A stretch of 32,000 nucleotides of DNA, taken from NCBI GenBank assembly GCA_963789185.1, contig CAWBJU010000022.1, forward strand, positions 181,853 through 213,852, read 5' to 3'. Positions within the stretch are counted from its first letter, which is position 1, and every line of letters begins with the position of its first letter. The translations under genes and the position numbers were made by a program. Positions 3,301-23,300 of the stretch are shown piece by piece. A model generated the notes under the pieces. The model made no database searches. It had not been told where the DNA came from and worked only from the letters and a program-made list of their open reading frames with translations. The stretch is from an uncultured Acidobacteriota bacterium (GTDB lineage Bacteria; Acidobacteriota; Blastocatellia; Pyrinomonadales; Pyrinomonadaceae).

Positions 3301-4084
3301 GGGAGCGTCTTCCTACGACGGCATGCTGGTGAGCTTGCGGAAGCGTTTCTCGCAGGGTCTCCAGTTTGACTTCAACTACACCTGGTCGCACTCAATCGAC
3401 AATGGTTCCAGTATCACGAATACTGTTACCGGTGGATTGGTTTGCGATATGACCAACCTCCGCGTCTGCCGTGGAAATTCTGACTTCGACATTCGTCACC
3501 TCGTCAATGCGAACTTCATTTACGAGTTGCCGTTCGGTCGTGGACAGCGCTTCGGCAGCGGAATGCCAGGATGGGCGAACCAGATCATCGGTGGCTGGGA
3601 AGTTAGTGGTATATTCACAGCTCGCAGCGGTCTGGCATTCGGCACCACAAGTGGTACCTTCCCGGTGGGCTTCAACTTCAATAGCCCGGCGGCGATCAAC
3701 ACTGGTGCTAACCTTGCGGCTCTTCGCGCACGGATTCACGATGTTGGAAGTACGATTCAGTTCTTCGACGACCAGACTGACGTGTTCGATCCGCAAAACC
3801 CGACAGCGGGCGCTCTTCGTTTCCCGCGTCACGGCGAGATCGGCAGCCGTAACATCCTTCGTGGACCAGGCTTCTGGAACCTCGACACGGCAGTCATGAA
3901 GAATTTCAAGATGCCATGGTCAGAGAGCCAGTCGCTTCAGATCCGTTGGGAGTCCTTCAATCTTTTCAACCATCACAGCTTCGGTTTGCCGGCTGCGAAC
4001 ATTGTTGGAGCGACCTTCGGACAGATCACCACTTCGGCAAGTGCGGCTCGCGAAATGCAATTCGCGATTCGCTATAGCTTCTAA
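374..4084 (+). CDS. TonB-dependent outer-membrane receptor with N-terminal carboxypeptidase-regulatory-like domain
   Basis: Track ORF is 353..4084. I prefer ATG 374, preceded by AAGGAG at 363-368, which gives the signal peptide MKKLFYAFMLASLTLCLSAVVAMA|Q. There is a CarboxypepD_reg-like segment (GVTGTVKDSNGAVVAGADVKLTD) and a plug-like segment (NVIGERRLKELPIQIRNSPAALIGLQAGV). The long beta-rich body ends in an aromatic residue (FAIRYSF), as in OM barrels. Confidence 0.85.
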   Translation: MKKLFYAFMLASLTLCLSAVVAMAQSSAGVTGTVKDSNGAVVAGADVKLTDTKTGAELNTKTNDQGVYNFQKVAPGTGYKLTFTNAGFQTLVINDVALGVDTTSTHNAELTIGEVTGTVVVTASNEVTLNTSDASIGNVIGERRLKELPIQIRNSPAALIGLQAGVVGNNVGATGGNRIGSVTGARTDQGNITVDGIDVNDQTTGQFAATVGNAPIDAIQEFRAVSTNPGASDGRSSGGQVELVTKSGTNEFHGNLREYNRTAATAANTFFNNKNGIPRPALTRNQFGGSIGGPIAKDKLFFFFDYEGRWDAQQVTNLRIVPLQHFREGRVAFQNQTAGCPTSPRLTTAPQCITILTQAQVAALDPLGVGGDASLLSFVNERYPLPNDLSAGDGINTGGFRFNSPSRRRDNTYTTRIDFNPASAHKLFGRFNIARRQQTDTVNTVAAQFPGDPETGQIIVRDYTWVVGHTWTASPTFVNQITVGAARSGLLFPNNFAPAFPNSFTFGAGLSAPFASISSQDRFVLVPTYRNDATWTKGTHSIEFGGSFKPTNQQSGLVNDFNFVTVGLGGALTALNASLRPATIRNNTAARGNYDAAFAFLLGRYSGVQTNFNYDPSGTAFAPGTGKVRNYRYDELELYVQDNWRVRNNLTLNLGVRWHLSPAPYERDGFQAAQDVDMRQLFDLRQRNAAAGIFGADAEPLLRYDLVGKGNNARALYETDLNNFAPRFGFAYTPAFKDGFLGKLFGDSKTVIRGGASVTYDRPSGAITFIQDQVSYLFDNSATTLFPLGGSANAALTNNPRFTTIAQSPVQNAAPVITRPFTPFGIDGLASGEFNYAVDQRFRIPYSMQYSFGFQRELPGDFILEASYVGRQGRKLFSQADVAQVLNFRDPDSGQFLLDAFNGLQHQLLNDLPITAQPWFENRVLGGTQTVLDFVSLEALRGNTADAMFVLYLIGATEPNVGMSAQFGTNVYISNQGASSYDGMLVSLRKRFSQGLQFDFNYTWSHSIDNGSSITNTVTGGLVCDMTNLRVCRGNSDFDIRHLVNANFIYELPFGRGQRFGSGMPGWANQIIGGWEVSGIFTARSGLAFGTTSGTFPVGFNFNSPAAINTGANLAALRARIHDVGSTIQFFDDQTDVFDPQNPTAGALRFPRHGEIGSRNILRGPGFWNLDTAVMKNFKMPWSESQSLQIRWESFNLFNHHSFGLPAANIVGATFGQITTSASAAREMQFAIRYSF

Positions 4085-10693: not shown

Positions 10694-10699
10694 CAGGCT

Positions 10700-11052: not shown

Positions 11053-11571
11053 TCAGTGTACCAGCTTTTTGAGCCGTATTTCCGTTATCTTTGCTTGTTC
11101 CGCTGCGGCGATGCGAAGTTCGGCGTCGGGTTCGTTGCTGAGGCGCTCGCGTAGGAGTTCGAGCATTTCGGCCGCTGATTTTCCCGTGGCGCAAACGATG
11201 AATATGAAGCCAAATTTTTGTTCGTAGTCCTGGTTGAGTTGGGCCAGCGCGTCGAGTGTTTCCTTGGTAGCGACTTGCACTCCAGCCTGTTCCTGGCCGG
11301 ACCATTGTTTCGATTGAGACGAGACTCTGTCAGCAGCCTTTTTCTCTCCGAGCTTTTCTCCGATACGGGGGTGACTGTGAAACGCTTCGAGCCAATCGGA
11401 GGGTTCCAGCGACCACCACATCGCGTTACCTAAGCGCGTCAGTCCGTCGATGCCTGATGCGTACTGCCGGAGCTGCACCATCGCTTCAGCCCACCTCACT
11501 GATCCGCAGCATTTTAGAAACTCTTGCAGTGCTTCGTCCGGCGGCAGTGCTTCTAACGACTCGTAATTCAT
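11053..11571 (-). CDS. uraD: 2-oxo-4-hydroxy-4-carboxy-5-ureidoimidazoline (OHCU) decarboxylase
   Basis: 172 aa with the HPRIGE motif (AFHSHPRIGEKLG). It overlaps the allantoicase stop by 4 nt. Confidence 0.85.
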   Translation of the reverse strand: MNYESLEALPPDEALQEFLKCCGSVRWAEAMVQLRQYASGIDGLTRLGNAMWWSLEPSDWLEAFHSHPRIGEKLGEKKAADRVSSQSKQWSGQEQAGVQVATKETLDALAQLNQDYEQKFGFIFIVCATGKSAAEMLELLRERLSNEPDAELRIAAAEQAKITEIRLKKLVH

Positions 11572-12566
11572 GAGTCGACCAGTTTCCCGTAAACGCGCAA
11601 CCGGCTGACGCCGCCGTCCGGGTAAATGTTGAAGCGAATGTGCGACGCAGCGCTAGTCTCCAACAACTCGCGATCGAAATAGTGACGCGTATGCGCTTGT
11701 AACTTCGTGCGCGGCAGGAGACTGGTCCATGCCACGGAAAGATCTGAAAGGTCCGCACCGGCGTCTGTGGTGTGATAGGTTTCCAGTGAACAACTGTCGG
11801 GAAAGTTGCCTTTGAAATGTGATGTGTCTACCTCAATTGACTGAATCAATCCTGGCCGCGCGAGTTGAATGATCGACCAATCGTGGCCTGGGCCTCGGCG
11901 CCGTTTTGTTTCCCACCCGTCGCTCATGTTCGCGGCCCGGCCCGGCATGATCATGTTATGACGATGACCGAAGAACATATCGCTGCACGAGATAACCAGC
12001 GCGCCGTTCTCCGCTGCGGCGAGATCGATGCTGCCACCGGAACGTTTGAGCCGGTCCCAGTCGGGAGAGACGATGCCGTAAACACGCAGACGCGCGACGC
12101 CGCCGTCGGGATAGATCTTGAAACGCAGATGCGTGATTCGCTCGTCGTATTTGATCGGGAAGTGGTTTTGACTGTCGCCTGCGAGAGACATCTGCGGCAA
12201 CAGTGGAATCCATTGGACCGATTCGTCCGTCAACTCTTCGACCGTCGGTAAACCGTCGAATGTCGCGCCCTCGAGCGAACAATGTTCGGGATAGTTACCA
12301 CGGAAGTAACTCGTATCGACGGTGATCCCGCGAACGATCCCGGGCAGGCCAAGACGGATGATGCACCAGTCGAACCCCGGAGTGCGTCGCCTCCGGCTCT
12401 CCCACCCGTCCATCCATTTCCCGCGGTCGGTGTATTCGCCCTCGCGCCAAACGGGCGCGCTCGCCTTCAATAAATTCTCTTTCGGCGCAAAGAAATCGTC
12501 GTTGGCAAACAGCACCGCCCCACCGAGTTTCTCCGACGCAAGATCGATTAGTTCAGTGAACTCCAT
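11568..12566 (-). CDS. alc: Allantoicase
   Basis: Track ORF is 11568..12593. I prefer ATG 12566 (MEFTELIDLASE); the upstream extension is just a translated repeat array. There are two allantoicase repeats with DGWESRRRR and DGWETKRRR motifs. Confidence 0.9.
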   Translation of the reverse strand: MEFTELIDLASEKLGGAVLFANDDFFAPKENLLKASAPVWREGEYTDRGKWMDGWESRRRRTPGFDWCIIRLGLPGIVRGITVDTSYFRGNYPEHCSLEGATFDGLPTVEELTDESVQWIPLLPQMSLAGDSQNHFPIKYDERITHLRFKIYPDGGVARLRVYGIVSPDWDRLKRSGGSIDLAAAENGALVISCSDMFFGHRHNMIMPGRAANMSDGWETKRRRGPGHDWSIIQLARPGLIQSIEVDTSHFKGNFPDSCSLETYHTTDAGADLSDLSVAWTSLLPRTKLQAHTRHYFDRELLETSAASHIRFNIYPDGGVSRLRVYGKLVDS

Positions 12567-12569
12567 AAT

Positions 12570-12605
12570 CACAAAGAGGCACAAGAGGCACAAAAGGCAC
12601 GAAGA
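12570..12605. repeat. Array of four 9-nt units GCACAARAG; forms the left arm of a 31-bp inverted repeat
   Basis: Plus strand reads CACAAAGAG GCACAAGAG GCACAAAAG GCACGAAGA. Positions 12570-12600 match the reverse complement of 13029-13059 at 28 of 31 positions. Confidence 0.85.
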
Positions 12606-12617
12606 AAAAAGCCAGGT

Positions 12618-13007
12618 TCAGGTCAAGATGTACTTCTTGATTTCAAGCTTTGGACCGCCGAAATTGATTAGCAGTCCGTGTTGCATGCCCGTTGCCCTAA
12701 GATAACCTAGCAATTGTGCAGTGTGACCATCAACCAAGGCGCTACAACTCTTTATTTCGCAAATCAGGATTCGCTCTAGCAAGATATCGGTTCTGAATAG
12801 GCCAAGCAGCGTACCATCCTCGTCAAATACTCGAATGCATTCTTGCTGCTGCGCACGAATACCCTGTTTTCGAAGCCGATGTGCCAGCGCATTCTCATAA
12901 ATCTTTTCGGTAAAGCCGCTGCGCAAATACTTGTGAATTTCAAGACTCGTTCGTCTAACCAAATCAGAAAGCCTGAGGATCTCGCCGTCGTGAGGAACGG
13001 TTTTCAT
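12618..13007 (-). CDS. GxxExxY protein (PD-(D/E)XK nuclease superfamily, PDDEXK_3 / TIGR04256-like)
   Basis: 129 aa with the motif GFTEKIYENAL (G-x-x-E-x-x-Y) and a nuclease-like D...E-x-K (TDILLERILICEIKS). A good SD (AGGAGAGAG) precedes ATG 13007. GC is visibly lower: 26/60 over 12618-12677, against 35/60 in alc at 12481-12540. Confidence 0.85.
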   Translation of the reverse strand: MKTVPHDGEILRLSDLVRRTSLEIHKYLRSGFTEKIYENALAHRLRKQGIRAQQQECIRVFDEDGTLLGLFRTDILLERILICEIKSCSALVDGHTAQLLGYLRATGMQHGLLINFGGPKLEIKKYILT

Positions 13008-13028
13008 ATCTCTCTCCTATTCTGTAAT

Positions 13029-13061
13029 GTGCCTTTTGTGCTTCTTGTGCCTTTTTGCGGC
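13029..13061. repeat. Array of 9-nt units CTYTTGTGC; forms the right arm of the inverted repeat
   Basis: Plus strand reads GTGC CTTTTGTGC TTCTTGTGC CTTTTTGCGGC. It is the inverted counterpart of 12570-12600. Confidence 0.85.
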
Positions 13062-13069
13062 TAATTGTC

Positions 13070-14416
13070 TCACAAGAGCATAACCCCCATCGGTTGCAGT
13101 GCTAAGCCGCGATCATCGTAAATCTCTTTTCCGCGTAGAAAAGTTTTTCGCACGACACCGTTAAGCCGTTGACCATCGTATGGTGTGAGCTTGTGGCGGT
13201 GATGAAGGTCAGCGGCGTTGACCGTGAACTCTCGATACGGATCCCAGATAACGAAATCGGCATCGTGACCCGTGGCGATCACTCCCTTGCGTGACTCCAG
13301 GTTCACTTGGCGCGCCGGATTCGCACAAAGCCACTTCGCCAGATCGTGAAATGAGTATCCCCGCCGTTGAGCTTCGGTCCAAACGATCGGCAACCGCAGT
13401 TGGACCGACGAAATGCCACCCCAGGCAGCGAGAAAGTCGCCTGAGTCGCGCAACTTCATCGGCCCGGGACAGGGCGAGTGATCAGAGACGATCATGTCGA
13501 TCGTTCCGTTTGCCAAACCATCCCAGAGCCATTCACGATTCTCGCGCTCGCGAATTGGTGGACAACACTTAAACTCCGTCGCACCCGCGGGTATCTCGTC
13601 GGCTGCAAAGTAAAGATAGTGCGGACAAGTCTCGGCCGTGATCGCAACACCATCACTCCGCGCTTCACGCAATAACGGAACAGCGTCGGACGACGAAAGA
13701 TGCACGATGTGAACGCGCGTGCCAAACTCGCGGCTCAAACGAATCATCAATTTAACTGCTTCATTCTCAGCAGTTCGCGGCCGGGAATCGAGAAACGTCT
13801 GGTAATCACCACCCGACCCGCTTGGAGTAGCGCGATCGATTGGCCCAGGCAATTCAGCATGGACGATCAACAACGCATCGAGTCGCGCGAGCTCCGGCAT
13901 TGCTTCGCGCAGATCGGCCTCGGTTACGTGCTGAAACTCATCAACGCTGGACGGCACCAGAAAACATTTGAAACCAACCACGCCTGCTTCAAGCATCGGC
14001 GCAAGCTCAGCAGTGTTTCCGGGCACAACGCCACCCCAAAACCCAACGTCGATAAAGCATTTATCTCTCGCTTCATTGAGCTTGGTTCGGAACGCAGCGA
14101 GCGTCGTCGTCGCCGGAATCGAATTGAGCGGCATGTCGACGAGCGTTGTGGTCCCGCCAGCAGCGGCGGCCGCCGTTGCATGCTGAAAACCCTCCCAGTC
14201 CGTGCGGCCCGGCGCATTAACGTGCACGTGCGTATCAACCAGTCCAGGCATGATGACGGAATTCTCATCAGCCTCCACCAGCTCGCAGTCGCCGGCGATC
14301 TCTTCATAGTCACGCACAGATTCGATCACACCATCGCGCACATAGATCGATTGAGCGCCGATCGAATCCGGCAACACAACGTTGCGTCCGCGAATAATGA
14401 GATCCGGACTCGCCAT
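13070..14416 (-). CDS. allB: Allantoinase (cyclic amidohydrolase)
   Basis: Track ORF is 13070..14554. I prefer ATG 14416 (MASPDLIIRGRNVVLPD). Metal-site motifs are VDTHVHVNAPGRTDWEGF, GFKCFL, IVHAE, VHIVHLSS and VSDHSP. Confidence 0.9.
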   Translation of the reverse strand: MASPDLIIRGRNVVLPDSIGAQSIYVRDGVIESVRDYEEIAGDCELVEADENSVIMPGLVDTHVHVNAPGRTDWEGFQHATAAAAAGGTTTLVDMPLNSIPATTTLAAFRTKLNEARDKCFIDVGFWGGVVPGNTAELAPMLEAGVVGFKCFLVPSSVDEFQHVTEADLREAMPELARLDALLIVHAELPGPIDRATPSGSGGDYQTFLDSRPRTAENEAVKLMIRLSREFGTRVHIVHLSSSDAVPLLREARSDGVAITAETCPHYLYFAADEIPAGATEFKCCPPIRERENREWLWDGLANGTIDMIVSDHSPCPGPMKLRDSGDFLAAWGGISSVQLRLPIVWTEAQRRGYSFHDLAKWLCANPARQVNLESRKGVIATGHDADFVIWDPYREFTVNAADLHHRHKLTPYDGQRLNGVVRKTFLRGKEIYDDRGLALQPMGVMLL

Positions 14417-14421
14417 GGAGA

Positions 14422-15170
14422 TCAAGTAAAGACCGGCGGTGGTGGCGGCGTGCTGGGCGGTTGCGGACCCTGGCGCAACCCAAAGATCTGCTCGTAAGCG
14501 ACAGCCATGGCCGCATAGCTGATTGGCAAGACGAAGTACACCCCGATAATGCACATCAGTAGGCCCGCGAGGCTCAACAGAAAATTCAGGAAACCATTCC
14601 CAGCAGTCCCCAGAAGTTTGCGAACGCGCCTCTGAAACTCATCTTTATCGCGTCCAGTCCCTGCAGCCCGCGATCGACGATTAGCGGGTACACAAACATA
14701 AACCCGATCGAGAGGAACATGATCAACCCAATGATCGCTATCCAGAACACTGCATACACGAGAAAGACAAGCAGCATCGCTCCGCCATTTGGTTCCCCGT
14801 TTGACTGCGAGAGCATCGCGAAAAGAAAAAATACGTAGAACAGAACGTAAGCTCCGACCACGAGGCAAATAATCGGCACTACGTGGATCAGCGTTGCGAC
14901 GATGCTCTGGCCCAGGTATTCGAACCCCTTGAATAGTGTCCCGAATTCAATGGGCTCGCCCCGGCGCATCTTGAAGAACGTCAAAAACAGGCCACACATC
15001 ATCGGTCCCATCAATATTCCGAACGGAACAGCCGAGGCAATCATCCATCCGACGATGACCATGCCGAGGATCAACCAGTACTGGTTCTTGATCAGGTTCC
15101 ATCCTCCCTTAAGGCATTCGACAGGACTAACTGCGTTTCGATTGAACTCGACTGGAGGGACAGTTGACAT
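14422..15170 (-). pseudogene. The same membrane-protein gene read as one unit, needing a 1-nt frame correction near 14586-14600
   Basis: Downstream of the stop, the other frame (tail of track ORF 14422..14868) encodes a further TM helix and tail, FLNFLLSLAGLLMCIIGVYFVLPISYAAMAVAYEQIFGLRQGPQPP.... It stops 5 nt before the allB ATG. One extra T in GTTTCC would join the two frames (ATG GTT TTC CTG AAT TTT). Confidence 0.5.
14586..15170 (-). CDS. Polytopic membrane protein of unknown function (5' reading frame)
   Basis: 194-aa ORF with several TM helices (WLILGMVIVGWMIASAVPFGILMGPMMCGLFLTFF...). It ends abruptly at FANFWGLLGMVS*. Confidence 0.7.
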   Translation of the reverse strand: MSTVPPVEFNRNAVSPVECLKGGWNLIKNQYWLILGMVIVGWMIASAVPFGILMGPMMCGLFLTFFKMRRGEPIEFGTLFKGFEYLGQSIVATLIHVVPIICLVVGAYVLFYVFFLFAMLSQSNGEPNGGAMLLVFLVYAVFWIAIIGLIMFLSIGFMFVYPLIVDRGLQGLDAIKMSFRGAFANFWGLLGMVS

Positions 15171-20345: not shown

Positions 20346-20375
20346 GCCTTTTGTGTTTTTTTGTGCCTCTTGTGG
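20346..20375. repeat. Solo copy of the CTYTTGTGC repeat array, filling a whole intergenic spacer
   Basis: GCCTTTTGTG TTTTTTTGTGC CTCTTGTGG lies between the xdh Mo-subunit ATG (20343-20345) and the WD40-caspase stop (20376-20378). It has the same orientation as the 13029-13061 array. Confidence 0.7.
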
Positions 20376-23300
20376 CTAGGGCTTTGCGATTACGAGTGGA
20401 TTTGCTTCCAACTCGCGGCGATAGAATACACGCGGGCGCTGCACACTTCGCTGCTGTGGATCGGCGACGTCCGCTTCGCCTTCAGTGAACGCGATCTGGA
20501 TACCAAGCCCACGGCCTTGCGCCATCTTTTCTTCCTGCATGCGCGGCACACGATCAGTCGCGAAGTTGAGCCACTCGCGCGCGATCAGCACACCGTCCTT
20601 CGGTTCCGCGTCGGCGATCGGCGTTTTCAGTCCTTCTTCAACGAGGGCGTACGTCAGGTACCCGTGGCCCAACTGCGCCGCTTCGAGTGCAGCCTGAAAA
20701 CTCTGCGCGGCCGTAAGGATATACATTCCCTTTTCGTACGCGAGTTGCGCGAGCCCTTTTGAATTCATTGGACCACGACGCTTTTCCTCAGCTTCGAGCG
20801 CTTGTCCTGAATTGCACGCGTCGATGATCAGCAGAAGATGACCCGCATCCAAACCCTCAACGGCCGCTTCCAGTTCGACGTCTGAAATGCTATGCGAAAG
20901 CATCGTGTTCAAACCTGCTTCCGTCAATTTCGTTCGGTCGCCGGTGTAGCCGAGATCGTGTGGAATCAGATAGAAGCGTTGTGCCTGCGCAGTACCGTGT
21001 CCCGCGTAGTAAATGATCACCGTGTCTTCAGGCTCGACGCGTTTGAGCCCATCGCCGGGACCAGCTTTAAGCGTCGGTGGTCCAGGCTGGCCGGTGAGTC
21101 GCTTGATAACTGAAAGGATGTTGTCCTTCGTGGCGTTTGCGTCGAGTAGTTCGATAACTTCGACGCGCTCAAACGATCCGATTTGCGTTTGCTTGCGACG
21201 CATCTCGTCGCCGAAGCTGCGCGCATCCGCGACCGCGTACTTCAGATTGTACTGAGAGTTCGCGTATTCATTTACTCCGACGGCAATGATGTACGCCGTG
21301 CCTTTGCGTTTCAGCGTGTCGGCGCCGGCAAACACGAGCGGCGAATCCTTGCTCTTAACGTTGTCGCGATTGAAAGCATAGGCCACGAGCCGATTCGGTC
21401 CGGCAGTGACTGTGATCTCGTGCTCCACCGACACCGCGGCCTGTCCGTTCAGCACGTCGCCGCGCCATACCTTTACTAATGATCCATTCCGAAACAGGCG
21501 TAGATCGCGCGCGCCGCTTCCTTTCGGATTGTCCTTGTCAGCGGGCGCGTCGGTGACGTCGATCTTCACCTTGATCGTGCGCGCCGCAATACCGGATTCA
21601 GGCGCCGGGGGTCCAACAAGCGACAACTTCACCACCGGTTGTCGTCGATCTTTCTTCGAAACATCCTGCGCGACACGCGGGCGTTTTCCGTTAAAGACGT
21701 CAGCCAGCAGACCCGGATAGTAAAACTCGTTGAAGAACCACTCGATCGGTGCGACGTTGAAAGTCTCCTGGTTGTAGCGCCAGAGGATCTGGTTCCAGGA
21801 AACAGGCGTACCGTCAAACAAACCTTGCGGCGTGACGACCATCCACTCACTACCATCGTCGAGCGAGATCATCGTCAATAGGTGTTCGCCGCTCTTGCTG
21901 TCCCACAGAAACGTACTGCCATCGTCGCTTGATGACGCGAGCAATCGTCCATCAGGAGTGAAGTCGATCGACTGAATACTCGAAGTATGGCCCGTCAACG
22001 TGCGTAGGTCACGACGATTCTCGACGTCCCAAATCTTGATCGTGTTGTCAGACGCAGCGGTGGCAAGCAACTTTCCATCGCGACTGAAGACGAGCTTGGT
22101 AACGCCGCGCCCGTGTGCTTTCAGCACACCAATCTCACGGCCGCTCCCGACGTCCCAAAGTTTCACCTGGCCCGTCGTCTCAACTTTGAAGTCCTTCATC
22201 ATGTCGTCCGGGTCGAGCTGCTTTGAACCTTTCGAACCCTTTTGCGGACGTCCGCTCATCGCGGCGCTCATCATTGCGGTGAAATCGATGTTTGCCTTCG
22301 ACTCGAAGCCGCCGGTTGCGAGGATGCGTCCATCGACGCTAAAGGCGAGTGACTTCTCGCCCATCGTTCCGGACGAAACCATTCCGAGGGAGTTATTCAT
22401 CATAGCCGTGAGGTCGGCCATGTTTAGCATCGCGGGCATTTTGCCGGCTTTGATACTGCTCGGATCGATGGGTTTCATCAAGCCAGCCATCGGCGACGAG
22501 GTCAGATCGCGCACCTTGTTACCTGTCTGCGCGTCCCACAGCGAGATTTGGCCCATGTTTCCGATCGTGCCGATGGTCCGGCTGTCGCGACTGAATTCTG
22601 CTTCACTCGGATTGTCGGCCGAGATGGACCGTAGTTCTCGGCCTGTTTTTACGTCCCAAATTTTTATCTCGCCGGACAGTCCCCCGATCGTGGGTTGTTG
22701 TTTTGTATAGTCCGGAAAATAGATGACGACAAGTTTCGTCGAGTCAGGACTGAAGCGAACGCGTTGGACCATGTTATTTGCGGGCGGCGTCAGCGCGTGT
22801 ACCTGGTTCCCACTCGAAGTCTCCACGACCGACACCATACCGGTGTTTAAATTCATCAACGCCAACCAGCGCCCATCCGGACTCGTAGTGCCAAAGCCTT
22901 TTTCAAGCGGCTTTGCCGTGAGCCGCAGGCCACGTCCCGTGCGCAAGTCCCAACGCGTGCGGTCACCTGAATACAGATGCATTCCATCAGCGCTGAACGA
23001 AACATTGCCGGCCATGTTGGTCCGACCGCTCAGCTTGTTGAGTTGTTTACCGGTTTCGGTTTCCCAAACGATCGTGTCGGTATCGAAGCCGCCGGTGGCA
23101 ATGCGCTTTCCGTCTTCGCTGAAACCGACATAAGCATCGCCGTATGTACTCATCCCGGTGGTTGGTGCTTTCAAACTCGACAGCTCGCGTAGCGAAGTCA
23201 CATCCCAAATGCGAATGTTGTAGTTGTCAGACAAAGCAAGCAGCCGGCCGTCGTTGCTAAATTTGGCGACGCTGTAGTCTTTCGTCGTGCGTGTTAGTTC

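Follow-up and report, generated by a model that had tools for sequence, protein, structure and literature searches.

Background

Some intervening sequences (IVSs) of 23S rRNA carry an ORF inside a hairpin. In Coxiella burnetii the IVS has a 28-bp terminal stem in which an RNase III cut has been mapped to the middle, a 5' arm of tandem GACAGAT heptamers (three, although the number is variable) and a GC content lower than that of the host (PMC4990558). The element was gained horizontally and has descended vertically thereafter, and its S23p four-helix-bundle ORF is decaying and probably untranslated (PMC4990558). The IVS of Leptospira is likewise ORF-bearing, according to the mention of it in the same work (PMC4990558; Ralph & McClelland 1993 as cited there).

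Hairpins built from repeats also occur outside rRNA. Cyanobacterial STRR hairpins are found in operon spacers, such as that between hupS and hupL, and have been proposed to act in transcript stability or translational coupling (PMC2670836). REPIN-RAYT systems comprise an enzyme gene and, on either side of it, the hairpin-forming repeat presumed to be its cognate, in inverted orientation (PMC3116915, PMC3337134, PMC5581495).

The GxxExxY (PDDEXK_3) proteins are a very large family of unexplained function, entered as 'Unknown' in a 2012 survey of the PD-(D/E)XK superfamily (PMC3424549). In the literature searched, the family is named in three papers, none of which deals with its biology. The PD-(D/E)XK fold is known from mobile elements. 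Tn7 has ends with several TnsB sites and encodes TnsA, a PD-(D/E)XK nuclease, and homing endonuclease genes, of which I-Ssp6803I is a PD-(D/E)XK example, are sheltered in self-splicing introns and inteins. Here, we describe a GxxExxY gene packaged in a hairpin cassette within a 32-kb window (the whole stretch of DNA analysed) from an acidobacterium, and compare it with these systems.

Results and discussion

Anatomy of the cassette

A 129-aa GxxExxY (PDDEXK_3) gene (12618-13007, minus strand) is bracketed by 31-nt inverted arms inside the purine-breakdown (uricolysis) operon of the window. Because all genes lie on the minus strand, the purine-rich arm at 13029-13060 precedes the ORF in the mRNA. 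In this 5' arm (minus strand; CCGCAAAAAGGCACAAGAAGCACAAAAGGCAC) the purine-rich 9-nt unit CACAARAGG is repeated about 3.4 times; the arm starts immediately 3' of a TAG (13063-13061), 9 nt past the allantoinase stop. The 3' arm (12570-12600, minus strand; GTGCCTTTTGTGCCTCTTGTGCCTCTTTGTG) consists of pyrimidine-rich CTYTTGTGC units and terminates 3 nt short of the allantoicase ATG. The original prediction, which described such inverted arms of 9-nt units around the ORF between allantoinase and allantoicase, was borne out: positions 12570-12600 match the reverse complement of 13029-13059 at 28 of 31 positions (called as 29 nt at 93% by a repeat finder), and TRF reported both arms as period-9 tandem arrays. 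Across the 32-kb window, the arm pair is by a wide margin the best inverted repeat spanning at most 900 nt, the runners-up being no longer than 25 nt at 71-88% identity. The 14-mer GGCACAARAGGCAC, with up to two mismatches allowed, occurs in five copies against 0.44 expected, a count matched in none of 100 shuffles.

The GxxExxY ORF is the sole substantial ORF between the arms; its GxxExxY and D...ExK motifs are intact and its GC content is 0.47. As anticipated, it has its own Shine-Dalgarno sequence (AGGAGAGAG; 13010-13018, minus strand), read directly from the sequence, which lies in the loop outside the arm; a GGAG, GGGAG or AGGAA motif is kept in orthologs. The upstream neighbour is allantoinase (allB; 13070-14416, minus strand; stop TGA at 13070-13072). 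The mechanical ORF extends to 14554, and the likely start is the ATG at 14416 because the proteins of relatives are 448 aa long. Downstream lies allantoicase (alc; 11568-12566, minus strand; ATG at 12566-12564), with no Shine-Dalgarno sequence between the 3' arm and its ATG. No promoter- or terminator-like site was found on the coding strand of the cassette. GC content is 0.445-0.495 within the cassette against about 0.54-0.61 outside, some 10 points below allantoinase and allantoicase, in agreement with the earlier claim of a low-GC cassette. Orthologous arms in nine relatives follow the same unit grammar and end in TAGCCAC...GTGGCTA. The TAAT that had been noted just outside both arms is absent as a conserved flank in these relatives, and was ruled out as a target duplication on that ground.

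The encoded protein

The window protein matched TIGR04256 (GxxExxY; 110.4 bits, cut-off 35) and PF13366 (PDDEXK_3; 102.9 bits, cut-off 22), both over nearly its full length. Alignments A1 and A3 show no variation at the six residues that make up the GxxExxY motif and the D...E-x-K core (G31, E34, Y37, D74, E84 and K86). The AF2 model of the protein has a pLDDT of 89.4, and the best PDB folds retrieved with Foldseek were those of Cas4, AdnA/RecB nuclease, lambda exonuclease and Hjc. These are generic PD-(D/E)XK folds, all matched at a TM of at most 0.59, and a specific enzymology therefore cannot be inferred from them. A PDB search by sequence profile gave no match, and an exact-sequence lookup gave no record. 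PADLOC and PHROGs searches did not match the family; a lone 14.8-bit match of a Bacteroides protein was disregarded. A second homologue search (alignment A1) mostly returned the same Pyrinomonadaceae orthologs, and no second GxxExxY gene or paralog was present in the 32-kb window or in approximately 0.9 Mb of related loci. Searches of viral contigs yielded zero and two GxxExxY loci, and a typically viral family is therefore not indicated.

Descent and selection

The junction survey covered 80 GTDB species with adjacent allB and alc. The GxxExxY gene occupies this junction only in the closest Pyrinomonadaceae (allantoicase identity of at least 75%), in 10 lineages; these are monophyletic in a tree of allantoicase, apart from a single loss (L019) nested among them. 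The junction is empty in all outgroups, typically TGATG and mostly -1 to +30 nt in length. Empty junctions had been sought as a sign of a discrete inserted cassette, and their presence in the outgroups upholds that description. Over synonymous distances of dS 0.9-2, the gene has a dN/dS of 0.05-0.09, i.e. strong purifying selection, with a constraint like that of the neighbouring enzyme gene. Insertion at the allB-alc junction was thus a single event, dating to the ancestor of this Pyrinomonadaceae clade, and descent has been vertical since; the gene and the complementarity of its arms have been kept by selection from that time on.

Both GC and GC3 are low in all 10 orthologs. Low GC is no sign of recent acquisition here, because it is equally low in the 10 orthologs despite saturated dS, and the orthologs in 10 lineages with saturated dS led us to reject recent horizontal transfer. 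Relatives with the gene at the same site and at host-like GC had been named as the mark of ancient vertical inheritance; the shared site and vertical descent since an ancestral gain were found, but the GC is low rather than host-like. The label 'non-autonomous' attached to the putative mobile cassette is unproven, as the nuclease may be the cassette's own enzyme.

Predicted pairing of the arms and possible kinship with IVSs

In the RNA fold predicted for the whole cassette, the arm stem is the closing helix of the MFE structure and of the centroid structure alike (z = -3.2), giving a terminal stem of about 31 nt, with 2-3 mismatches, that encloses the ORF. The number of arm units varies from two to four between species and is equal in both arms of a cassette. 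Among the 10 orthologs, 91.7% of stem cells are paired and eight pairs show double changes; this level of pairing was reached in none of 500 shuffles, and slid controls gave 42-57%. A wobble-bias test for sense-strand RNA pairing found no excess of G.U-compatible mismatches in the metagenome set described below (45 vs 39, p = 0.59), nor was there an excess on the sense strand in the orthologs (11 vs 6). Since there is no wobble bias and arm mismatches are mostly transversions, pairing could be upheld in the DNA itself, or through copying of one arm from the other. Rfam searches (E <= 1) of the cassette region and 13 other cassette loci returned nothing relevant, only sub-threshold miRNA-like hairpin matches, and a self-splicing intron was rejected on this basis.

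The Coxiella 23S IVS is the closest characterised relative of the window cassette. Both are approximately 430-490 nt long with a small ORF of about 120-130 aa in the loop, have terminal inverted repeats able to form a long stem (about 20-30 bp) around that ORF, are lower in GC than their host, and were gained once and then inherited vertically. The 5' arm is in each case an array of tandem units (GACAGAT x3 there, CACAARAGG x3.4 here) whose number varies by strain or species. In contrast to an IVS, the window cassette resides in a protein-coding operon transcript, flanked by allantoinase and allantoicase, and not in helix 9, 25 or 45 of 23S rRNA (no rRNA or Rfam match was obtained). Its ORF encodes a PD-(D/E)XK nuclease-fold protein of TIGR04256 instead of an S23p/four-helix-bundle protein of TIGR02436, and unlike the Coxiella ORF it is subject to strong purifying selection and has a good Shine-Dalgarno sequence in the loop. 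RNase III cleavage has been demonstrated for the Coxiella IVS and is a proposal for the window cassette. Outside rRNA, TIGR02436 ('23S IVS protein', four-helix-bundle) genes sit in equivalent hairpins, including on cyanobacterial plasmids, and at one locus (L119) such a gene in an equivalent hairpin and a GxxExxY cassette lie 480 nt apart. The earlier comparison of the window cassette with rRNA IVSs that house ORFs is strengthened by the Coxiella stem, tandem units, low GC and mapped RNase III cut, and by the TIGR02436 genes in the same architecture. A fold that closes on a covarying stem is also in line with the earlier interpretation. The comparison ties the GxxExxY family to ORF-bearing 23S IVSs, the origin and purpose of which have been a puzzle since the early 1990s.

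On balance, we lean towards regarding the window cassette as an old, vertically inherited and still functional selfish cassette of a widespread class, the mRNA counterpart of ORF-bearing 23S IVSs. Its design is that of a promoter-less GxxExxY nuclease gene with its own ribosome-binding site between terminal inverted arrays of two to four units of about 9 nt, placed within an operon where one gene stops and the next starts, and in the direction of both. Read-through from the promoter of the uricolysis operon would transcribe the cassette; in the mRNA its arms would form a stem of about 30 bp, looping out the ORF, and the base of this stem would bring the stop of allB close to the start of alc. 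Such a stem may serve as a natural RNase III substrate, as a coupling device, or both, making the insertion tolerable for the operon. The iterated units found across phyla may be recognition sites of the encoded nuclease, which could thereby spread or preserve the cassette as well as its ORF-less hairpin derivatives, much as RAYT transposases act on REP/REPIN. As a model of operon architecture, this would let operons tolerate insertions by way of a stem that is cut by RNase III or that reunites a stop codon with the next start codon. Several observations speak against this reading: a dsRNA substrate of RNase III needs no conserved unit motif; the protein is a small nuclease with no obvious strand-transfer activity; the wobble test was null; no second GxxExxY gene turned up in the 32-kb window or the approximately 0.9 Mb of related loci; and ORF-less hairpins occur in both polarities and approximately 44% of sampled loci fall below the arm threshold (see below).

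Homing endonuclease genes in introns and inteins offer a parallel, as they too are small selfish nuclease genes in a host transcript with an RNA-level device, in our case a proposed one, that neutralises the insertion. They differ in that the cassette has no intron or ribozyme in Rfam, a plain long stem takes the place of splicing, and the flanks are separate genes.

The persistence of the cassette could also mean that it has been domesticated by the host, with the stem as a cis-acting mRNA element for transcript stability or allB-alc translational coupling, as proposed for the STRR hairpin of hupS-hupL, and with GxxExxY serving the host in, for example, RNA processing or defence. We regard this as improbable, although the long vertical persistence, at a dN/dS of 0.05-0.09 and with a constraint equal to that on the adjacent enzyme gene, would be expected of it, as would a stem base that coincides with the allB stop and alc start and an alc that lacks its own Shine-Dalgarno sequence. 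Also in its favour, operon-spacer hairpins with such proposed roles are known (PMC2670836), and REPIN-RAYT systems show that persistence of this kind can occur. Against it, the cassette was lost in L019 while the operon was kept, no known defence family was matched, decaying ORF-less copies are common, and elsewhere the cassette lies between unrelated gene pairs. The STRR hairpins themselves resemble the cassette in having arms of tandem short units (7 nt in STRR) between co-transcribed genes; they have been described without an enclosed ORF and in cyanobacteria only, whereas here units of about 9 nt in an acidobacterium carry a nuclease gene in the loop.

Cassette design across the GxxExxY family

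The selfish-cassette reading treats the window copy as one of a class, and the design indeed recurs around the GxxExxY family in several bacterial phyla. From metagenomes, 82 independent GxxExxY loci were sampled, of which 79 were usable and 73 had full flanks. Arms were scored by aligning the upstream flank with the reverse-complemented downstream flank, with a threshold of at least 13. Significant flanking inverted arms were present in 56% of the 73 full-flank loci, against 0-1% of shuffled or reversed controls and 11% when flanks were compared across loci; the remainder (approximately 44%) fell below the inverted-repeat threshold, some of them with direct instead of inverted arrays. The arms share a common grammar, on the sense strand, of CAC-RR-AG units upstream and CT-YY-GTG units downstream, with a modal period of 9 and the core C-A-C-R-R-A-G. 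Purines predominate in the upstream arm of 36 loci, pyrimidines in that of two. Arms abut the stop and start codons of neighbouring genes, and the cassettes are wedged co-directionally between these genes. The same design was found for seven distant GxxExxY genes on plasmids or chromids. Whether other GxxExxY genes are flanked likewise had been put as a question, and ORF and arms do travel together across phyla; protein similarity tracks similarity of the unit motif (3/2000 permutations).

Insertion sites in other phyla include fabD-fabG, radA-FAD protein and ade-manC. As these gene pairs are unrelated to uricolysis, the function of the cassette is not tied to purine catabolism, which weighs against domestication. 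A chance association, in which slippage-prone spacers happen to flank the gene, or a recent low-GC horizontally acquired island would fit the short-unit tandem arrays that are common in the spacers of these genomes and the GC of the cassette below its flanks. Both are very improbable: the former is excluded by the comparison of own flanks with controls, by the common grammar and polarity, and by covariation, and the latter by the 10 orthologous lineages, their equally low GC, the monophyletic distribution and saturated dS. An integron cassette (attC) was rejected as well, given the single bracketed ORF, CACRRAG units that are not RYYYAAC/GTTRRRY cores, and operon-enzyme neighbours; no integrase was found within 10 kb of the cassette. 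The grammar, written as TAGCCAC/TTCACCAC + [CACRRAG-NN]n ... [NN-CTYYGTG]n + GTGGTGAA/GTGGCTA, can be used to flag cassettes as well as their ORF-less relics.

ORF-less hairpins and their bearing on mobility

ORF-less mini-versions of the cassette were found in L103, L101, L122 and L185, and those of L120 retain the Shine-Dalgarno sequence together with the beginning of the ORF (~35 nt), a contiguous 5' block in which 32-33 of 41-42 positions are identical. Only this contiguous block was counted, gapped local alignments of the L120 minis with the full ORF being no better than shuffles. The occurrence of such derivatives near GxxExxY cassettes lends weight to the earlier suggestion of a mobile cassette. 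Together with the consistent hairpin packaging of the family, the deletion derivatives nearby suggest that the DNA or RNA of the arms is the substrate of the nuclease.

A purely DNA-level, transposon-like element is a further candidate, in which the GxxExxY nuclease would bind the arms as terminal inverted repeats with multiple sites (cf. the TnsB sites of Tn7, and REP/RAYT) and RNA pairing would be incidental, with no role in expression. We consider this account unlikely. A core motif and ~9-nt period conserved across phyla would be needless for a plain dsRNA stem, and MITE-like internal-deletion derivatives and tandem copies, presence/absence polymorphism of hairpins among close relatives, different hairpin families at the allB-alc junction by lineage, the absence of sense-strand wobble bias and the correlation of protein similarity with unit motif are all in keeping with a DNA-level element. 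However, the window copy has stayed at one site through saturated dS with its arms still complementary via compensatory changes, and a fixed copy needs some other selective reason. Strict polarity relative to the ORF and co-directional insertion with the neighbours also count against it, as do the lack of any recombinase or strand-transfer domain and of an unambiguous target-site duplication; the TA...TA bounds of many elements are indistinguishable from an extension of the inverted repeat because they are themselves palindromic. Resemblance to MITEs, TIR transposons and Tn7 extends to iterated short sites in terminal inverted repeats, internal deletions that keep the ends, and an associated PD-(D/E)XK nuclease. 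Unlike TIR transposons, the cassette encodes no strand-transfer enzyme (genes of the DDE, HUH and recombinase types are all absent from it) and shows no clear target-site duplication, is only about 490 bp long, and is inserted strictly co-directionally within operons.

REPIN-RAYT is a further parallel. Shared features are an enzyme gene between inverted copies of a presumed cognate hairpin repeat and long vertical inheritance under purifying selection. Examples of ORF-less hairpins or arrays in spacers (the L185 mini hairpin, the solo array of the window described below, and the minis of L101, L103, L120 and L122) may correspond to the dispersed hairpin doublets of the same sequence type in REPIN-RAYT genomes. 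The fold differs, being PD-(D/E)XK here (only PDDEXK_3/TIGR04256 was matched) and IS200/IS605-type HUH (Y1) tyrosine transposase in RAYT, and the arms are tandem arrays of ~9-nt units instead of a single REP palindrome. A broader extension of the selfish-cassette reading, which we advance tentatively and with some doubt, is that GxxExxY and its inverted ~9-nt arrays form a cross-phylum, PD-(D/E)XK-driven replicator akin to REPIN-RAYT, with the four-helix-bundle 'IVS proteins' perhaps driving a second; the arms might also form an 'mRNA intervening sequence', with a stem that is processed by RNase III or serves in coupling and so permits harmless residence in essential operons and in rRNA. If so, one element class would take in the long-puzzling ORF-bearing 23S IVSs, the STRR hairpins of cyanobacteria and the thousands of GxxExxY genes that lack an explanation.

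Solo arrays and other spacer hairpins

The arm array is a feature of both cassette arms, as originally described, but is not exclusive to them. A solo purine-type array (20346-20378, minus strand; TAG-CCACAAGAGG-CACAAAAAAA-CACAAAAGG-C-ATG) has the same grammar as the cassette arms and makes up the entire spacer between a gene for a 1265-aa WD40-repeat protein and that for the xanthine dehydrogenase large subunit. A partner arm for this array was not found. In the relative L185, a complete ORF-less mini hairpin with the termini TAGCCAC...GTGGCTA is situated at the same WD40-xanthine dehydrogenase junction.

ORF-less hairpins were found in both polarities relative to transcription, and their presence or absence is polymorphic among close relatives. 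Short-unit tandem arrays are generally common in the spacers of these genomes, and the allB-alc junction hosts different hairpin families in different lineages. In L034, an apparent 42-nt inverted repeat around the OHCU decarboxylase gene resolved into two local hairpins of one unit family and is not a cassette.

Architecture of the cassette

The GxxExxY gene (gxx) between the allantoinase (allB) and allantoicase (alc) genes belongs to a cross-phylum class of cassettes. The finding is real and broader than a reader of this stretch alone could see. As far as could be searched in the literature and Rfam, which has no family for these hairpin structures, the class is undescribed; the TIGR04256 curators' text, outside that scope, might mention flanking repeats.

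Every gene in this region lies on the minus strand. In coding order, the allantoinase stop codon (TGA, 13072-13070) is followed by a 9-nt stretch ending in TAG and by a purine-rich 5' arm of 32 nt (CCGCAAAAAGGCACAAGAAGCACAAAAGGCAC, 13060-13029). A 21-nt spacer containing AGGAGAGAG leads to the 129-aa GxxExxY ORF (13007-12618; GxxExxY/PDDEXK_3 scores of 110 and 103 bits), and a 17-nt spacer separates the ORF from a pyrimidine-rich 3' arm of 31 nt (GTGCCTTTTGTGCCTCTTGTGCCTCTTTGTG, 12600-12570), directly after which come ATT and the allantoicase ATG at 12566. The mechanically called allantoinase ORF (13070-14554) has a GTG start and 494 aa, compared with 448 aa in its orthologs; the true start is probably the ATG at 14416.

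The original prediction described inverted arms built of 9-nt units around a GxxExxY gene of lower GC content, and these features are borne out. Besides the HMM scores, the arms match as reverse complements at 28 of 31 positions (29 nt at 93% according to the repeat finder), period-9 arrays were called by TRF in both arms, and a two-unit 14-mer is over-represented (5 matches versus 0.44 expected, a count reached in 0 of 100 shuffles). No comparable inverted repeat within 900 nt occurs elsewhere in the 32-kb window. GC content is 0.445-0.495 in the cassette interior and ~0.54-0.61 outside. The cassette's coding strand shows no promoter-like or terminator-like sites. When the full cassette is folded as RNA, the predicted MFE and centroid structures are both closed by the arm stem (z = -3.2).

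The searched literature holds nothing on GxxExxY biology, the family name being only mentioned, and PDDEXK_3 is listed as 'Unknown' in a survey of the PD-(D/E)XK superfamily (PMC3424549). The predicted structure of the window protein (pLDDT 89) bears a generic likeness to Cas4, RecB-type nucleases and lambda exonuclease (TM <=0.59), and this modelled fold does not point to a substrate.

Cassettes across the GxxExxY family

Arms were looked for beside other GxxExxY genes and were found in two samples. The first comprised seven distant genes, whose products share 28-45% identity with the window protein and which are carried on plasmids or chromids of Sphingomonas, Gemmatirosa, Persicobacter, Bacteroides, a fusobacterium, Bernardetia and Treponema. 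Those with annotation lie co-directionally between unrelated genes (fabD-fabG, radA-FAD protein, ade-manC). Inverted tandem-unit arms accompany five of the seven, such as TTCACCACAGAGGACGCAGAGGACACGGAG / CTCTGTGACCTCTGTGTCCTCTGTGGTGAA in B. finegoldii, and in the fusobacterial copy a 22-nt direct repeat takes their place. In the Sphingomonas parapaucimobilis chromid (L094), where the cassette is located between fabD and fabG, the annotated 142-aa GxxExxY ORF (1959-2387) runs through its own 3' arm, partly translating it.

The second, independent sample consisted of 82 loci (80 from metagenomes and 2 from viral contigs; 79 usable, 73 with full flanks), of which the metagenome set represents one branch of the family; identity to the Bacteroides protein is 40-78%. 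The 130 nt upstream of each gene were aligned against the reverse complement of the 130 nt downstream. Mean score was 15.5 for the same locus, with 56% of loci scoring >=13, versus 7.5 (0%) for shuffled sequences, 8.3 (1%) for reversed, non-complemented sequences and 9.0 (11%) for arms paired across loci; ~44% of loci miss the inverted-repeat threshold. Purines dominate the upstream arm in 36 loci, pyrimidines in 2. Units have a modal period of 9 (range 8-10) and a core of C-A/g-C-R-R-A-G plus about two variable bases, and the outermost unit is mostly (T)TCACCAC / GTGGTGAA. The CACAARAGG arms of the window represent a local variant of this grammar. Neighboring genes are close, with the end of a same-strand upstream gene <=18 nt from the 5' arm in 21 of 29 cases and the start of a downstream gene <=27 nt from the 3' arm in ~21 of 32. 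Unit-motif similarity rises with protein similarity (Spearman -0.14; 3/2000 permutations), which indicates that ORF and arms travel as one unit. One protein, P0121 (255 aa), consists of two GxxExxY domains fused in tandem.

A single ancient insertion with maintained arms

The closest homologues of the window protein (78-91% identical, all ~129 aa, from Pyrinomonadaceae where named) share its position, flanked by the allantoinase and allantoicase genes within the same uricolysis cluster, which is ordered XDH subunits, FecR-like, DUF, allB, gxx, alc, OHCU decarboxylase, HIUase and urate oxidase. An allantoicase scan of one genome per GTDB species yielded 80 loci with adjacent allB and alc, spanning Acidobacteriota, Gemmatimonadota, Myxococcota and others. 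Only the seven closest Pyrinomonadaceae species among them carry gxx, to which two ENA lineages and the window are added. The empty junctions sought in relatives were found, typically measuring -1 to +30 nt (e.g. TGATG). Carriers form one clade in the allantoicase tree with a sole nested non-carrier (L019), which represents a loss of the cassette; the cassette was thus gained once in an ancestor and inherited vertically afterwards.

Purifying selection on the protein is strong (dN/dS 0.05-0.09, with dS from 0.9 to saturated). Because gxx has a low GC content in all 10 lineages (GC 0.44-0.51 and GC3 0.42-0.58, ~10-20 points under allantoicase), this is a stable property and not a sign of recent arrival. 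GC3 of gxx (12618-13007 and orthologs) lies 10-25 points under that of neighboring genes in 10/10 lineages despite saturated synonymous divergence, a stable compositional bias of the loop region.

Both arms are likewise kept in 10/10 lineages with a common grammar. The TAAT flanks originally proposed do not hold, the termini of the arms being TAGCCAC...GTGGCTA throughout. In most lineages the TAG of the 5' terminus doubles as the allB stop codon, with a gap of 0-7 nt between the 3' end and the alc ATG. Unit number varies from ~2 to 4 across species and is equal in both arms within each. In the 26-bp basal stem, 91.7% of cells are paired and 8 pairs have changed on both sides, a pairing level reached in 0 of 500 shuffles and compared with 42-57% in slid controls. 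With synonymous divergence saturated over most of the clade, a spacer free of constraint would have become random, so the arms are either constrained or continually homogenised against one another. Three population variants (L006, L009 and L013) have, relative to L004, a 1-nt deletion near the allantoinase 3' end (~3940-4000; GGGGGTTTAC in place of GGGGGTTTTAC), which takes the ORF (462 rather than 448 aa) across the 5' arm as far as the GxxExxY start.

Proposed roles of the arms

Read-through from the operon promoter would transcribe the cassette, and the arms may then pair with each other in the transcript. Near-perfect duplexes of ~30 bp are canonical substrates of RNase III. Cleavage of such a stem by RNase III has been demonstrated for the Coxiella 23S rRNA intervening sequence (IVS) (PMC4990558). 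Pairing would also place the SD-less alc start beside the allB stop at the base of the stem, and the nuclease may recognise the iterated units. Against a purely RNA-level role, G.U-compatible mismatches on the sense strand are not in excess (45 vs 39), and a unit motif shared across phyla is superfluous for a plain duplex. If the arms were instead purely transposon ends, acting on DNA, complementarity would not be expected to persist through compensatory changes, as it has, in a copy that has not moved. We lean towards a dual role in RNA and DNA; its rivals are the purely DNA-level reading and a domesticated module.

ORF-less derivatives and turnover

Mini-cassettes that share termini and units with full cassettes but have no ORF occur near them (L103, 5126-5283; L101, 3147-3250; L122, 2288-2372). 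In L120 (2210-4875), a histidine kinase gene is followed by at least five minis of ~155 nt and one full GxxExxY cassette, distributed to either side of a gene for a sigma-54 response regulator. These minis retain the SD and first ~35 nt (about 12 codons) of the GxxExxY ORF, identical in register at 32-33 of 41-42 positions, and are internal-deletion derivatives.

Tandem-unit elements also occupy junctions in the window's own clade and other Pyrinomonadaceae. In the window, a solo purine-type array (TAG-CCACAAGAGG-CACAAAAAAA-CACAAAAGG-C-ATG; 20346-20378, minus strand) takes up all of the space separating a 1265-aa WD40-repeat ORF from the gene for the xanthine dehydrogenase large subunit, and no partner arm accompanies it. 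Among relatives, the same junction holds a complete mini hairpin in L185 (TAGCCACGAAGAGCCAC-ATAAT-GTGCCTCTTTGTGGCTA) and a decayed array in L184. The HIUase-urate oxidase spacer measures 6 nt in the window (10694-10699) and is a 71-107-nt hairpin with GYACAAAG/CTTTGTRC units in L001 (8310-8419), L016 (5287-5361) and L019, so that ORF-less hairpins are polymorphic (present or absent) among members of the clade. Six gxx-less Pyrinomonadaceae (L022, L025, L026, L027, L029 and L036) have ORF-less hairpins at the allB-alc junction itself, with arms of tandem units unrelated in sequence (e.g. GCGGATGAAC, CTCTGTG), a ~60-bp stem in L036 and, in many, TA...TA bounds beginning at the stop codon. Together, the minis, the spacer polymorphism and the unrelated-unit hairpins indicate that tandem-unit hairpins are dynamic, recurrent occupants of operon junctions here.

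In another acidobacterium (L034, 6990-7760), one unit family (GTTTCAAGTTTCAG / CTGAAACTTGAAAC) builds local hairpins in one uricolysis-operon spacer after another. An apparent 42-nt long-range inverted repeat around its OHCU decarboxylase gene is spurious, being produced by these local hairpins.

Relation to known elements

We file the cassette as kin of IVS-like and REPIN-RAYT-like hairpin elements. REPIN-RAYT is the nearest analogue in evolutionary behaviour, combining an enzyme gene and inverted cognate repeats with vertical persistence and dispersed hairpin doublets, but differs in enzyme class. Cyanobacterial STRR hairpins (hupS-hupL) are a known ORF-less analogue, for which roles in transcript stability or translational coupling have been proposed (PMC2670836).

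The closest characterised object is the ORF-bearing IVS. That of Coxiella is 428-444 nt in length, holds an S23p (four-helix-bundle) ORF in its loop, has a terminal stem of 28 bp, is cut mid-stem by RNase III as mapped by RACE, carries three tandem GACAGAT heptamers of strain-variable number in its 5' part, has a GC content of 36% versus 42.5% in the host, and was acquired horizontally and then inherited vertically (PMC4990558). Genes of the IVS protein family (TIGR02436) show this same design outside rRNA, which supports a real connection with the GxxExxY cassettes. In locus L119, a TIGR02436 four-helix-bundle gene (69.5 bits) lies within a perfect 24-nt inverted repeat of short units (1282-1945), 480 nt from a GxxExxY cassette. 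The copy on Nostoc punctiforme pNPUN01 (L186) has inverted (GTCGGAR)x4-5 arrays (score 29 vs 8.5 in the control) and that of Chlorohelix (L188) is bracketed by inverted (GATGAAG)x3; two other plasmid copies have direct arrays.
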